Made by a program: the position numbers and the translations under genes. Positions 2,923 through 54,311 of a stretch of DNA of 64,000 bases are shown piece by piece. The stretch's first letter is position 1. Every line of letters begins with the position of its first letter. The DNA comes from Octopus vulgaris (lineage: Eukaryota): assembly GCA_951406725.2 (NCBI GenBank), contig OX597831.1, positions 47,182,001 through 47,246,000 on the forward strand, read 5' to 3'. Under the pieces are notes generated by a model. The model saw only the letters and a list, made by a program, of their open reading frames with translations. It searched no databases and had not been told where the DNA came from.

Positions 2923-3833
2923 ATTGATGATATTTCTATGTGAATCACTCAGAAAAGAGATAGAAACGTTGGTAGTCCCAACCCATTAGCATTGATTTTT
3001 TTTTTTTTTCTTTTTTGAGGATTTCAACTTTCACTAGGAGGTGTTATTTATAACTTATGTGTTCAAAATCAACTTCAAATAGTTATTGGTTCGTTACAAT
3101 TAAATCCAGTTTCAAACAGAAATTGACTTTTGTGCAGTGTGAAAACTTACCTTGAGAACCTGAATTTGTAAATATTCAAACTTGTCTGACTTCTGAAAGA
3201 TATATATTAAATGCATGAAAAATATATCTAAATGTCCTCTTTCTTCCCACCTTCCCCTCTCTATGAACATGTATGTATTTGTGTGTGTATGAAAATAGGA
3301 AGTCTATTTTTAGTTTATAAGTTATAATTATCATGAAGTTTGATATTACACTCTTTTGTTAAAAATGTAATTAGATCATTATTTGCTGCTGATAAGCTTT
3401 TGCCGACTCTGTTTGAGAAGTTTGATGTATTCTTTCAACCTTCTCTTCAACTTCATAAGAGGTAGCCTACTCTAAGAGATGATGTGCACTCTATATTAGT
3501 CAATTCACTTGTACAAATTGGCCCCTATTTGTACTGAGGTCATCAGTTTCACTGAAGTTAGCTGATGCTACATATAGCCAAACTATCATTACCTCATAAA
3601 TGTATGCCTTTTGCTAAGACTTTCAACACAAGATTCAGTAGCTTGATTTTTGCGATTTTTTTTTCTTTTTCCTGAGTTTCATAGGCTGTGTCACTGAACT
3701 TCTGAAAGTAAGTTCAGTCAAAACTAGTCTTTTTGAATGCAAAACTCTATTAGTCAGGTAAGATAGTGTGAGCCATTACCCATTGTTTGGGGAAGATGAA
3801 CTTTCAGTGCAAATTATAAAAGAGACTCTTTCT

Positions 3834-16960: not shown

Positions 16961-17071
16961 TTTTATTAACTACAATTATTATACTCCCAACTAGTTTTTT
17001 CCATTCCCAATGCTGCCGTTTTTTGACCACACTATGACGATATAGTTCTATATTCAAGAGACGAGGAATTA

Positions 17072-17199
17072 TGTACATTATTTACATTTGACGGATATTT
17101 CTCTTCATCTTGTTTGTTGTTAACACAATGTTTCATCTGATATACCCTCCAGCCTTCATCAGGTGTCTTGGGGAAATTTCGAACCTGAGTATTTTTCGA

Positions 17200-17237
<38 letters not shown>

Positions 17238-17513
17238 TCACTGCCTGGAATCGAACTTGGAATCTTGGGGTTAGTAGTCCACGCTCTTAAGTGGTTAAGA
17301 GTGCGGGCTACTAACCCCAAGATTCCGAGTTCGATTCCAGGCAGTGACCTGAATAATAATAATAATAATATTGAAAAATACCTCAGGAATGAGAACCCAG
17401 GTTCGAAAATTTTCCAAGACACCTGATGAAGGCTGGAGGGTATATCAGCTGAAACGTTGTGTTAACAACAAACAAGATGAAGACAAATATCCGTCAAATG
17501 TAAATAATGTACA
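17072..17513. mobile_element. Head-to-head palindrome of a tRNA-headed, hammerhead-bearing element
   Basis: Arms of about 220 bp fold back around CTCTTAA-GTGG-TTAAGAG (17291-17294). Each arm reads outward as a tRNA-like head (B-box GTTCGATTCC), (AAT)n, then a hammerhead. Confidence 0.8.
17418..17463 (+). ncRNA. Minimal type I hammerhead motif (Penelope-like, extra A after A9)
   Basis: GACAC-CTGATGA-A-GGCTG(10 nt)CAGCT-GAAA-CG-TT-GTGTT. A mutated mirror copy lies at 17122-17167 (-). Confidence 0.7.
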
Positions 17514-18112: not shown

Positions 18113-19704
18113 AGGTATCAGTTTGATGAAGTATCAGGAATATGAATGCTACCTGTGATAGATTGGCATCTCATTTAGATGTGGGGGTGGATATTCAGAT
18201 TCATCCCTTATCTGCTTCATATCACGAAACCAGAGCCTAAAGACTGTGGTCCTTAAAATCTCTTAGGACTTCATAAAGTATTTGCATATTTTTCATTAAA
18301 CCAGAATATTTATGAAGAGTGGCACTTTTAGATCAATGTCAATCTGATACCAAATATCATAAATACTGTATTTGTCACTCTTTGCACTGACATCCCAGAT
18401 TCTTTAAATTTCTTCATGGTGTTTTCATATCTTAGATTTCATTCCCATTAGACTAGTATGCTACTATTTTTCATCATTTTTTGATACTTCTAGTGAGCTA
18501 AACGAACATGTGCTTGTACACACACACGCACATGCGTACAGACAAGCACAAGCGGTAACAAATATTCACACAAATACTTACACATTTATGTTGTTGTATA
18601 TACAAGTGTTTCACTGTCCCTATGTAACGAACTATAATGACTCATTCTTAGTCCAGTTCCATTAAATAATAATCTGTTGATACAGTATCCCTAAAAGAAA
18701 AAAAATTATATTTCCTTCAGTTTAATCATTTGTTTGCTGCATGAAAACAAAAAGTACATGATGAATTCAATAAAGAATCATCTGTTGTACAGTCCCAGAT
18801 CAGATTTGATTGAGCTTACCTATAACCAAGGCACTCTTAGCTGTGACCAGCTTTATTTTGGAGATGTTTTTGTGTCTGGTGAGTGATTTGATCTCAGAGT
18901 GTGTGTTGAAATTAAAACAATTGCGGGTGGGAGTGACACATACCAGTCATACAAAAATATGTTTTTGAATAACTTATATGCATCTTCCACACTGTTAATG
19001 CATCTTCATTTTTTTGTTTCTCTAAATCATGGACTTCGTTGTCTAAAGTATCTTGCTTTATTTGAGACAGTAAGATTTAGTTTTGAAGGAGGCTTGGATA
19101 CCATTTCTAACAGGTTGAGTGACTGTGTAGTTGCTTCCTTCTTGGCACCATTAGTGGTTGTTAATGTTTGCTCCAGGTCATCTATGATTAAAGGTGTTCC
19201 AGCCATGCCCATCCCATCTTTTCAGATATAGCTTTTCTCACATTATTGAAAAGGACGATGGATTGGTAGAATCATTAGTGTTGGATAAAATATTTGTTCC
19301 AGATCTTTATATTATAAGCTCAAATCCTGCTGCAGTCAGCTTTGCTCTTCATCCATTCAAAGTTAATAAAATAAAGTTACCAGTTTCAGAGCTGTGAATT
19401 GGTGGAATTGTTAGCACACTGGGCAAAGTCATTATTATCATCATTATTGTTATAACATCCACCTTTCCATGCTTGCATGGGTCAGATGGAATTTATTGAC
19501 CAAGGCAGACTTTCTGTGGCCTAATACCTCTCTTGTCACTAACTCTGACTTGCTTTCAAGCAAAGTAATATTTCCCCATTGCCAGATATGTTTTTCATTG
19601 AAGACTGGAGGAAAAACAAACTTGCTTGTATGTAATCAAACCATCATGTTATGTCTAGGCAAAGGTGCACACAAACACACTCTCACATGCACACATTTTT
19701 TTTG

Positions 19705-25343: not shown

Positions 25344-26993
25344 TACTTCTACACACATTTTCTTGTGTGTGTGTGTGTACATATGCATGTGTAGTTATAT
25401 GCATCTGCATATACATATGTACATCTATGTGTATGTATGTATACATTGGTTTCATACATGCATGCATGCATGTGTGTTGAACTTTTACCTTTTTAAGGCT
25501 AACAAGCTTTCATCAAACTGAAACTTTGCAGTCACTGTCAACCCTCTTTCAGTAAAAAGTTAAATAAACATGAATTCTACTAAAAGTATTGAGCAATTCC
25601 TCAGTTTAATGTTAAATTGTTTTGATGTATAACTTAACCATAAAAACATATACATATATATATATATCCTTTGGAAATGTAAGTTACTTAAAGCATTTAC
25701 CTTCCTTTTCCCTCATTATAATCCCTCTCATTTCTTGTTTTCCTGCTTCCACCCTTCCTTTCTCTTGTTTATTCTCTCACGTTGTTTTCCTTTCACTTTC
25801 TGTCTCCCTTATTGATTCTCTTTGTATCCCCTAACATACACTCCTCAAAGATGTATTGCGCACACTCTCTGTCTATTGTTCTATTTACAATGGTAAAACC
25901 TTAGAAAAAAGACATTATTATCTATATTGATTCATGAAATTTAATTCTGGGGTGATTAAGCTTGGGCTGCACGTAGGGAAAATGTTTTACTTTGCTTAAT
26001 TAATTATAGTTTTAAATGGAAAAGATACATGTACGTTTTCTATAACCTGGTTGAATATAAAATGTTTATTCATTATCATTTACCTTCACAATGTAATATC
26101 TTGTGTTTCAAGCATAGCTTCATAGAAACTTAATGAATCAACAAAACTCAAGGAAAAATATTTGAACTGGGGTTAAAACAACTATTTTAAAATAAAATTA
26201 CACTGATTTTTATTTCTGTCAACTTAATTAAAGCATACTGCCTGTTCTAATGTGTAATTATAACATGTAACACGTTGTTGAGAGGAAAGCTGTGTAAGAT
26301 TTATTTTGGAGTTGGTGATATAAGATATGCACTGTTGTTCATGATTATGTATGGCTTTTACTGGTATGATCTTTGATTGAAGATTTCACTTTGAATGAAG
26401 TGTTAAATCCTAAAATTTATTAAAAATTGTTAAGTTTATGAAATTGTTTTGCAAGATTCCTGATGTGAAATCATATGTTGAAACAGATACTGTTATATTT
26501 CGGAAGTAGACACGTGGGGTGAAAGAGTCACTGAAGAGGTCACAGGTGTGTGACAAAAGATTTCCAGACAATTGATATAAAAAAAATTAAGGAGAATAAT
26601 AAATGAGTGAAGAACAAATATACATAGTGCATATGTTTATTTGGCATGAAATAAAAAAATGACCATCTCAAAATATAACACTTACTAAAAATTCCTTTTC
26701 ACTAAATATAACAGAATAGACACTTAACGAATTATATATGTAATATAATATTGGTTTCTGAGCAGTGTTGAATTTTTTGCAGTCACAAAGGATTTTCCTC
26801 CTTGTTTCATTTTTACTGCACTTTTACATTATCTTTTTTTATTTACATCTTTAGTGTTGAGTTTAATGACTCATAGGAAAAACCTTGAATCATCATATGT
26901 GTTTATTGAAGTCAGAGAGTAATTTATAAAACAGAATTTTTCCATGCCACATATTTTACAATCAATGCTATTGATAAAAGAGCAATTTTCCAA

Positions 26994-42658: not shown

Positions 42659-42961
42659 CAGTAATAATATAGGGTGAAATTAATTAATTTGGAATAATCA
42701 TTAATTTCACCAAGTAGATTTCGGCATGTAAAAGCCTCATTCGAGGAAAGTTTAAGTAATACTAAGTAATTAAGGGTTTAGCAACGATTTGCCTCACCAC
42801 ACACCGAAATTTAGAAATAGCAGTCAAAGAGTTATAGCTATTCTTTCTACTAAAAGGGAGATCTCAGTGGTTTTACTGAGATCTCCCTTTTAGTAGAAAG
42901 AATAGCTATAACTCTTTGACTGCTATTTCTAAATTTCGGTGTGTGGTGAGGCAAATCATTG

Positions 42962-52058: not shown

Positions 52059-52175
52059 GGATAGAATAAGTACTAGGCTTCCAAAGAATAAGTCCTGGAG
52101 TCGATTTGCTCGACTAAAGGCGGTGCTCCAGCATGGACACAGTCAAATAACTGAAACAAGTAAAAGAGTAAAGAG
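52059..52175 (+). mobile_element. SINE family A, 3' tail
   Basis: GATAGAATAAGTACTAGGCT..CTGAAACAAGTAAAAGAG. Confidence 0.75.
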
Positions 52176-52185
52176 TATATATTAC

Positions 52186-52502
52186 GGAGATGTACTTGCA
52201 TGGCAAGTGACCTGATCTGAGATCGTGTGTTGAAACAAAAACAGTTGCAGTGTGGAAGGTGTTTGTAAGCCATTTAAAAACACACAAAAACTGTTAGATT
52301 CACTTCAATGTTTAAATATAATTTGTCAAAATATTTTTGTCATTTTAAGACTGCAACATGATCACTGACAAAATTCCGTGCTGCATTTTATCAGTGATCA
52401 CGTTGCGGTCTCAAAGCAACGAAAATATTTTGGCAAATTAAATTTAAATGTTGAAGTGCATCTAACGGTTTTTGTGTGTTTTTAAATGGCTTATAAACAC
52501 CT
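52186..52502. mobile_element. Fold-back Penelope-like fragment
   Basis: Imperfect 118-bp arms at 52257-52374 and 52385-52502 with a 10-nt loop. The left arm extends to a short TA run near 52180. Confidence 0.7.
52387..52437 (+). ncRNA. Hammerhead-like motif with G3:C8 core variant
   Basis: TTTATCA-GTGATCA-C-GTTGC(9 nt)GCAAC-GAAA-ATAT-TT-TGGCAAA. The mirror arm has a perfect stem I (TTTGTCA/TGACAAA). Confidence 0.5.
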
Positions 52503-53388
52503 ATCACGCTTCCTTCGTTTTTCCATCTACTAAATCACTCACAAAACCACGGTTGAGAAATAAGCCTCTCCACTGCACAAATACACTTTGTGCTTATCAA
52601 TGACAACAATATTTAATTTTTTATATTTCTGTTTTCTTCAAAGTGGAAAATATATTGGTGTGTGTTTTACCACTCTTCTGCCAAAGTAACAGAGAATGAG
52701 ATTCATTTCTCATTCACCTAATGATTTTTAGAACAGAACTAAACATCAGTTTTATGAACTTTTGCCAGTGGTGTATGAAAAGAAGATGAAAAAAAATAAA
52801 TAAAAAGAGAGAGAGAGAAAGAAATTTCTTCCTTTTAACTTACAGAATAAATTTATCTTAATTTTAGTTTAAATGTGTTGAACATTTTAGACATAGTTAA
52901 AATGAAATAAATCTTTAACTACCATCTTAAGATGGGTAGTTAAATGAGATTTACTGAAAAAAAAATTGTTACTGTAATTTTTATGATCTAGCCTTTGGAA
53001 TAATCTACTTTTATATTAGATATTCTGATAAGATTCTCAGAAACTCTGTGTTAATATGACATAAATTGCTTATGTAATATTTATGCTATGGCTTTTGGAA
53101 CTTACCACTTTTACATTAGATATCTTTAAAAATTGTCAGAATCATCTGCATAAACATTACACACATGAAGAACTCTGGAATATATATATACATATATATA
53201 TGGGTGTATGTATGTATATATATATATATATGTATAAAATAAATATAAGAGAGTGGTCACTATATGGCTCACTCTAGCACCAGTTAATCCAAAAGGTTTC
53301 AACCACAAAAATACATGTTTCCCATGAAAGTCAGTACGATTGTTAGCTCACACGGACAGGGCAAATAAAAAATAACAAATACAGATTA

Positions 53389-53470
53389 TTTTGGGACAAT
53401 TGTTTCGCTATTAATGAATTAAATGTAATTTTACTTACAATAAAATCCACTTGTAGCTCTTCAGCCAAAA
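53389..53470 (-). ncRNA. Minimal type I hammerhead ribozyme motif, copy 1
   Basis: The minus strand reads TTTTGG-CTGAAGA-GCTA(43 nt)TAGC-GAAA-CAATTG-TC-CCAAAA. It has an intact core, 6-bp stem I, 4-bp stem II, palindromic stem III (ACAATTGT) and a GUC cleavage triplet. Confidence 0.8.
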
Positions 53471-53921
53471 CCATCTGGATGAAATCCACTCAATCACACG
53501 CCAGATTTTACCATAACGATAAATACGCGTGTGGTTCAATTGATTACATCCGACGTTATAATTCAAATGCCCCAACTAACAGCGCGCCAAACTTTCACGG
53601 AAAACAAATACAGCATTTAGAAATAAATGCAGCATAATTATAATTAATTAATAAGGGTGAGAGAATTAGATACTAATTTAATAGTATATCTATTCTACAC
53701 CAAGTGGCCTAGTGCTTCGAGAAACCTGGATTATTATAATATTTTATAATATATTATAATATTTTTACAAAATAAATATAAGAGAGTGGTCACTATATGG
53801 CTCACTCTAGCACCAGTTAATCCAAAAGGTTTCAACCACAAAAATACATGTTTCCCATGAAAGTCAGTACGATTGTTAGCTCACACGGACAGGGCAAATA
53901 AAAAATAACAAATACAGATTA

Positions 53922-54003
53922 TTTTGGGACAATTGTTTCGCTATTAATGAATTAAATGTAATTTTACTTACAATAAAATCCACTTGTAGCTCTTCAGCCA
54001 AAA
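53922..54003 (-). ncRNA. Minimal type I hammerhead ribozyme motif, copy 2
   Basis: Same sequence as 53389-53470, offset by 533 bp inside the direct repeat. Confidence 0.8.
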
Positions 54004-54311
54004 CCATCTGGATGAAATCCACTCAATCACACGCCAGATTTTACCATAACGATAAATACGCGTGTGGTTCAATTGATTACATCCGACGTTATAATTCAAA
54101 TGCCCCAACTAACAGCGCGCCAAACTTTCACGGAAAACAAATACAGCATTTAGAAATAAATGCAGCATAATTAAAAATATTATAATATATTATAAAATAT
54201 TATAATAATCCAGGTTTCTCGAAGCACTAGGCCACTTGGTGTAGAATAGATATACTATTAAATTAGTATCTAATTCTCTCACCCTTATTAATTATATATG
54301 TATAATATATT

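Follow-up and report, generated by a model that had tools for sequence, protein, structure and literature searches.

A candidate Penelope-like hammerhead with a reversed 3:8 core pair (G3:C8) in an octopus retroelement family

A short stretch of octopus DNA raises the question of whether a hammerhead motif can occur in nature with its sole tertiary core pair reversed, i.e., with G3:C8 in place of C3:G8, and whether such a motif would be active. It lies in a 64,000-nucleotide segment of the Octopus vulgaris assembly GCA_951406725.2 (contig OX597831.1, positions 47,182,001 to 47,246,000 of the forward strand), hereinafter the window, within which all coordinates are given. A compensatory swap of this pair is good evidence for selection on the active fold. 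The function of the hammerhead in Penelope-like elements (PLEs) is still debated: its cleavage is slow and is dispensable for insertion in vitro.

The motif and the inverted pair that carries it

The region 52387–52437 on the forward strand has the minimal type I hammerhead layout described for PLEs; its catalysis is a prediction only. The 5' strand of stem I (52387–52393) is followed by core positions 3–9, GTGATCA (52394–52400; G3 U4 G5 A6 N7 C8 A9, where N7 is U in the window copy), and by an extra nucleotide between A9 and G10.1 (52401; C here and T in the mirror arm). Stem II (52402–52420) consists of 5 bp, GTTGC at 52402–52406 and GCAAC at 52416–52420, with the pair G10.1-C11.1 and a 9-nt loop. 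The segment 52421–52430 includes GAAA (52421–52424; G12 A13 A14 A15.1), the palindromic stem III AATATT (52424–52429), U16.1 and U17 (52430), and the 3' strand of stem I occupies 52431–52437. The cut is predicted 3' of U17. Thus, G52394 and C52399 replace the usual C3 and G8 and can form a Watson-Crick pair with the orientation reversed relative to the consensus. The other core letters, U4 G5 A6, A9, G12 A13 A14, A15.1-U16.1 and H17, are canonical both here and in the family, and the features of the minimal PLE type (the extra nucleotide after A9, G10.1-C11.1 and palindromic 15.2–16.2) are present.

The sequence-only reading, which proposed this motif, was accurate about GTGATCA instead of CTGATGA, stem II, GAAA and the palindromic AATATT, as well as about stem I TTTGTCA/TGACAAA, which is a perfect 7-bp helix in the mirror arm. 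It counted seven bases between stems I and II; there are eight, GTGATCAC, if the extra base 52401 is included. Its statement that all parts are in register holds once this insertion is accepted; with the insertion disregarded, the parts are out of register. It also overlooked the ORF start downstream and the link to PLEs.

The motif sits in the right arm of an inverted pair (52237–52374 and 52385–52522, each 138 nt, 83% complementary). The left arm (52181–52386, reverse strand) is a short PLE-type unit composed of a 12-nt leader, the hammerhead motif, a 5' UTR and the first 31 ORF codons. The leader (52375–52386, reverse strand) precedes stem I, forms the loop of the palindrome and is the apparent common 5' end of many family copies. 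The mirror hammerhead (52322–52372, reverse strand) has a perfect stem I and keeps the G3:C8 core, but its stem II is disrupted and A stands at position 12 instead of G; it is predicted to be dead. The ORF start (52181–52273, reverse strand) encodes in its 31 codons the N-terminus of a likely PLE protein and ends at ATT in an AT-rich flank. The left arm begins with the leader and extends to 52181; the right arm (52385–52522, forward strand) is joined to it head to head as an inverted copy that lacks about 11 nt of the 5' end, with the terminus between 52510 and 52522. The right arm carries the ATG and the first ORF codons at 52486–52510 (forward strand); in each arm, the ATG follows the predicted cut by 55 nt (forward strand, 52486; reverse strand, 52273). 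An inverted, 5'-truncated copy that ends inside the ORF start and has a one-sided tail matches the pattern described for PLEs (available text of PMC8557442 and, for copies ending in the ORF start, of PMC11167929), the tail being longer than the published 30–40 bp. Elsewhere in the window, a near-identical tandem duplication of 533 bp (53216–54299, 98%) contains a 128-nt inverted repeat of its own (53640–53767 and 54172–54299, 98%).

The earlier remark that each arm is damaged agrees with our data: the left arm has lost G12 and has a broken stem II, while the right arm, complete in the core and stem II, has one wobble (G-U) and one mismatch (A-C) in stem I. In folding of the isolated right-arm fragment, the pair probability is 1.0 for stem II; for stem I it is 0.17–0.49 in the right arm versus 0.7–0.99 in the left arm. 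The duplex of stem III has little stability (−0.2 kcal/mol versus −1.7 kcal/mol for a canonical motif at 17423), and the folding z-scores of both arms as monomers are unremarkable (−0.1 to −0.8). A read-through transcript of the locus folds as one hairpin (−156.7 kcal/mol), in which the hammerhead pairs have P = 0.0. We reject hammerhead function at the window locus on this ground; the folding model predicts that the read-through RNA would collapse into the hairpin. The locus is a decayed copy of its family and is predicted to be inactive.

Rarity of the motif and the letters of its family

The bare string GTGANCA-N(8–30)-GAAA occurs in the window at the chance level (4 found versus 5.0 expected). 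The full descriptor requires stem I of at least 3 bp, stem II of at least 4 bp, a Watson-Crick 3:8 pair and a palindromic stem III; it follows the published one but was composed after the motif had been seen. Against 400 block-wise dinucleotide shuffles of the window, it matched in 4 shuffles, and its G3:C8 form with the palindrome in none; with the palindrome rule dropped, matches appeared in 17 shuffles for G3:C8 and in 106 for the relaxed type I descriptor with any Watson-Crick 3:8. The real window contains two full-descriptor matches, the G3:C8 motif at 52387–52437 and the canonical C3:G8 motif at 17423; allowing any letters at 3 and 8 adds a third at 3263, which is non-pairing and non-palindromic. 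A full-descriptor match such as that at 52387–52437 is therefore rare by chance. No matches turned up when metagenome and viral contigs were scanned for the motif.

The G3:C8 motif satisfies neither the literal CUGANGA consensus nor the Rfam hammerhead model. Rfam gave no hammerhead match in the window, nor in 52170–52530 at E ≤ 10; the latter region produced miRNA-type matches from the palindrome only, all below their cut-offs. Since Rfam also overlooks the canonical motif at 17423, it appears blind to the PLE-hammerhead class. That motif belongs to a second inverted pair (17060–17512) of canonical C3:G8 minimal hammerheads, intact at 17423 on the forward strand and damaged at 17162 on the reverse one; the layout is that of the G3:C8 pair, the sequence is unrelated, and we used it as an internal control. 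A short palindrome at 42826–42917, with perfect 26-bp arms, also gives miRNA-type Rfam matches below the cut-off.

To consider the family as a whole, contigs from 4 of the 24 listed runs, each representing a different organism (A, C, D or E), were aligned to 52372–52512 at a likeness to the window of at least 80%, with letters listed from 3%. The numbers of aligned contigs per run were 3761, 5096, 4364 and 2170, which indicates a dispersed family of very high copy number, although the summed depth is not a copy number. In all four runs, no alternative letter reached 3% at 52394 (position 3) or 52399 (position 8), and the same is true of the other core letters except for C11.1 to U (52420 C to T, 2.0–3.2%). 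At 52398 (position 7), A replaces T in 96–98% of the family depth in the four runs, and at 52401 (the extra base) G replaces C in 97–98%. The family core is thus GUGAACA followed by an extra G, from which the window copy has departed at 52398 (T) and 52401 (C). De la Pena and Flores reportedly found in 2001 that G or C at the extra-base position lowers activity.

The frequent polymorphisms of the motif (52404, 52407 and 52433) all preserve pairing or fall in a loop. Within stem II, C occupies 52404 in 50–61% and G occupies 52418 in 89–94%, which gives a C-G or U-G pair; in stem I, 52433 is A in 53–79% (U-A or U-G); and 52407 in loop II changes from G to A in 6–24%. Pair-breaking changes are listed as well (52405 G to A, 5–9%; 52417 C to T, 4–5%). 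Because about half of the sites would permit changes of this kind, we regard the polymorphism pattern as weak support (roughly p = 0.12 by our own estimate). Stem covariation in the contigs consists of wobble-type changes only, and the U-A of the window at 52404/52418 versus C-G of the family can be explained by CpG decay. We saw no covariation and no intermediate form at 3:8 in the family, i.e., in contigs of four runs with at least 80% likeness to the window. As the pair is invariant inside the family, the word “compensatory” takes the canonical consensus as its reference. The core depth is only 1.1–2.4% of the peak depth and is skewed to window-like copies, and the likeness filter could clip away a C3:G8 sister subfamily. 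The family retains GUGANCA and the stems in all four runs among these window-like contigs; position 52390 in stem I is ambiguous in the contigs, and pairing there was deduced from the mirror arm only. The G3:C8 motif is real and family-wide. Older partial copies of the far end of the family (71–80%) are found at 18854–18994, also as an inverted pair, and at 26438–26506; none of them reaches the hammerhead.

The open reading frame and the ends of the copies

The 40-residue translation had one match, P0001 (LOC115227545), an uncharacterised protein of Octopus sinensis (E 1.5e-8); identity extends to 28 of 35 residues, and similarity is lost after codon 31, at ATT 52181–52183. Residues 1–225 of P0001 in turn recovered P0002 of Octopus vulgaris (118/151 identical), which contains PKF (145), RWR (170), DKSG (293) and YGL..KDHK (364–371). 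PLEs are characterised by a telomerase-like RT with N-terminal GxKF/Y and DK motifs. By eye, the order of the P0002 motifs and the spacing of roughly 70 residues from DK to the first RT motif match the PLE alignment in the available text of Craig et al. 2021 (PMC8557442). P0002 has no match in Pfam or PDB, and the sequence stops short of both the catalytic motifs of the RT and any GIY-YIG domain; the PLE assignment is thus based on motifs and architecture. We presume that the ORF encodes a PLE reverse transcriptase, and the family is likely a Penelope-like retroelement of octopuses. The motifs are insufficient to settle the clade, and we rejected any such assignment. The gene model of P0001 looks chimeric, with about 225 residues of a likely PLE protein and a methyltransferase piece (Pfam, 243–310).

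The 31-residue query had no matches among protein representatives; no longer relatives of P0001 1–225 were found among 995 candidates; and no full-length element was recovered in the protein-relative and related-locus searches (protein representatives and contigs, including viral ones). The related-locus search in viral contigs yielded none, and a bacterial-looking contig (L001) was dropped as a chance match with in-frame stops. In the protein atlas, leads for P0001 score under 0.9, and P0002 scores 0.96–0.97 to rotifer-rich clusters with DUF8422 on 16–41% of members, which we take as a lead only. A single-sequence fold of P0002 was discarded (pLDDT 34.5).

Concerning the ends of the copies, 37–59 contigs per run, among the loose ends listed, exit before 52385 via the common 12-nt leader, beyond which the letters are unrelated (agreement 0.53–0.56). 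This suggests a shared 5' boundary of family copies 12–14 nt upstream of stem I. The loose-end consensuses turn mixed at 52510–52522, where the right arm ends. Among the joints listed, 14 single-run ones switch to the opposite strand, mostly from 52384–52387 to varied places, so that inverted junctions recur in the family. Where inserted copies begin and end seems not to be dictated by the cut.

Several details of these junctions may be mentioned. Four contigs from two runs join 52386–52387 to 52434–52435 and, in doing so, cross from one strand of stem I to the other, a pattern reminiscent of cDNA that looped back at stem I and served as its own primer. At the 52385 loose ends, AG stands immediately before the leader in three of four consensuses of low agreement; by analogy with a site near stem I in D. 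virilis Penelope, it is a possible 3' splice site. Two of these low-agreement consensuses have GAG; this triplet might base-pair with loop II or else be an echo of the element's far end.

The reversed pair among known systems and alternative explanations

PLE hammerheads as described by Cervera and De la Pena in 2014 (PMC4209133, in its available text) have an extra nucleotide, G10.1-C11.1, a stem III palindrome and opposite-strand pairs. The octopus motif is similar in these respects, and also in the short stem I, the 5-bp stem II, the position of the extra nucleotide after A9, the six A/U bases of stem III as in D. virilis Penelope, and its terminal-repeat position. It differs at 3:8 and at the extra base, both compared here with the same text: the 56 aligned motifs there include 53 C3:G8, two U3:A8, one U3:G8 and no G3, and the extra base is G in one of the 54 motifs having one. 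Natural U3:A8 hammerheads (Perreault et al. 2011, available portion of PMC3088659), including the Schistosoma Cercyon families, likewise present a natural Watson-Crick covariation at 3:8; however, U3:A8 can be reached by two transitions through a U-G step, whereas G3:C8 requires two transversions.

The closest experimental counterpart is PAc (Poseidon) of Anolis carolinensis (Frangieh et al. 2024, PMC11167929, as far as its accessible text goes). In PAc, C3G and G8C each abolish cleavage and C3G/G8C partly restores it; cleavage requires the protein of the element, insertion in vitro proceeds without cleavage, and reads terminating at the cut are absent. As in octopus, the PAc hammerhead adjoins the ORF start, copies terminate within that start (about 80–150 nt past the cut), the junction is ATT and the tail is optional. 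Unlike the octopus family, PAc has a natural C3:G8 core, its C3G/G8C being engineered; its ATG is at stem II rather than 55 nt past the cut; and its tail is 30–40 bp, against about 55–70 nt for the extra stretch of the left arm. The earlier claim that double swaps keep partial activity is borne out by PAc and by the available part of PMC8495972. The accessible portions of PMC8495972 and PMC3884650 mention G3:C8 as engineered only, and those of PMC6765202, PMC6155905, PMC10085705, PMC2837043, PMC13282606 and one 2026 preprint contain no natural G3:C8. Nor did a full-text literature search, thin on subscription papers, find a natural example, although a large survey of PLE variants may contain some. 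Such a survey, by Lunse et al. in 2017, is said to include about 150,000 PLE-linked variants. In what we found in print, natural Watson-Crick variation at 3:8 is limited to U3:A8, and G3:C8 appears as a laboratory mutant only.

We believe that the motif is probably a minimal hammerhead of an octopus Penelope-like family, with 3:8 reversed to G3:C8, preserved here in a decayed inverted pair of fragments; its self-cleavage is predicted to be slow and to occur as a dimer or with the aid of protein. Source elements would be transcribed from near the leader, and the RNA of active elements would fold stems I and II. Two such RNAs may pair through the AAUAUU palindrome, completing stem III, or the protein of the element may stabilise the fold. 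G3 would then pair with C8 and thereby keep the 2'-OH on the ribose of C8 close to the scissile bond; G12 would serve as the base, with a slow cut after U17. The chemistry, including G12 as the base, is established for hammerheads (PMC6155905, available text). The other eleven core letters are canonical while positions 3 and 8 have both moved to a new Watson-Crick pair, which argues for selection, and we infer that the swap was retained through selection on the source elements. Activity is rendered doubtful by the extra G, the weak stem III, the lack of covariation and the copy ends lying off the cut. The stronger proposition, that a natural active G3:C8 hammerhead became fixed in one of the most abundant octopus retroelement families by crossing a two-transversion fitness valley, is accordingly put forward as tentative, with the balance somewhat against it.

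Chief among the rivals is that the motif is a true PLE hammerhead homologue but catalytically silent in vivo, either because the fold is maintained to serve a different purpose (binding of protein, control of translation ahead of the ATG, or arrest of reverse transcriptase) or because G3:C8 was a founder state amplified with one source element. We consider it unlikely, yet deserving of serious attention. Cleavage in Anolis is unneeded for insertion in vitro and leaves no reads ending at the cut (PMC11167929, accessible text), Naiad elements thrive without canonical hammerheads (PMC8557442, available text), and family copies start 12–14 nt before stem I, away from the cut. The extra G and the weak stem III point the same way, and a single young burst would make all positions appear fixed. 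It is, however, improbable that drift alone produced two transversions restoring exactly 3:8 with the eleven remaining core letters intact, and G3:C8 is common to four organisms, though these may be close kin.

The other two explanations are far less probable. That G3:C8 marks a minor window-like subfamily, with a different majority core masked by the likeness filter, is made conceivable by the low core depth, by the 309–658 contigs per run that aligned only partly and by 467 further loose-end rows beyond those listed; but 92–97% of the depth over position 8 also covers position 3, both window arms agree, and one clipped group among those listed (52405; 14 contigs of run X14, agreement 0.56) reads G3 and C8, with A at 4. 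We think it very improbable. Slightly more improbable still is a chance hammerhead look-alike within a repeat of MITE, SINE or Helitron type. The chance level of the bare motif and the lack of an Rfam hammerhead match (E ≤ 10) agree with it, and the occurrence of GAGATG both ahead of the leader, in two of four loose-end consensuses, and at the distal end of the left arm might reflect a short terminal inverted repeat. Nevertheless, G3:C8 with the palindrome never arose among the 400 shuffles, the unit ends in an ORF that continues in P0001 and P0002 with PLE-type motifs, and the canonical motif at 17423 is equally invisible to Rfam.

Returning to the hammerhead we prefer, the octopus G3:C8 family offers a natural test case with built-in controls (single changes and the double reversion). 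It also exposes a blind spot, since published searches relied on C3:G8, U3:A8 or the string “cuganga”. If the proposal is true, G3:C8 cores would constitute a hidden class of PLE ribozymes missed by CUGANGA searches, and some elements regarded as devoid of hammerheads would need to be searched again; PLEs would then be selected for a catalytic fold even though it is not the cut that determines where insertions end.
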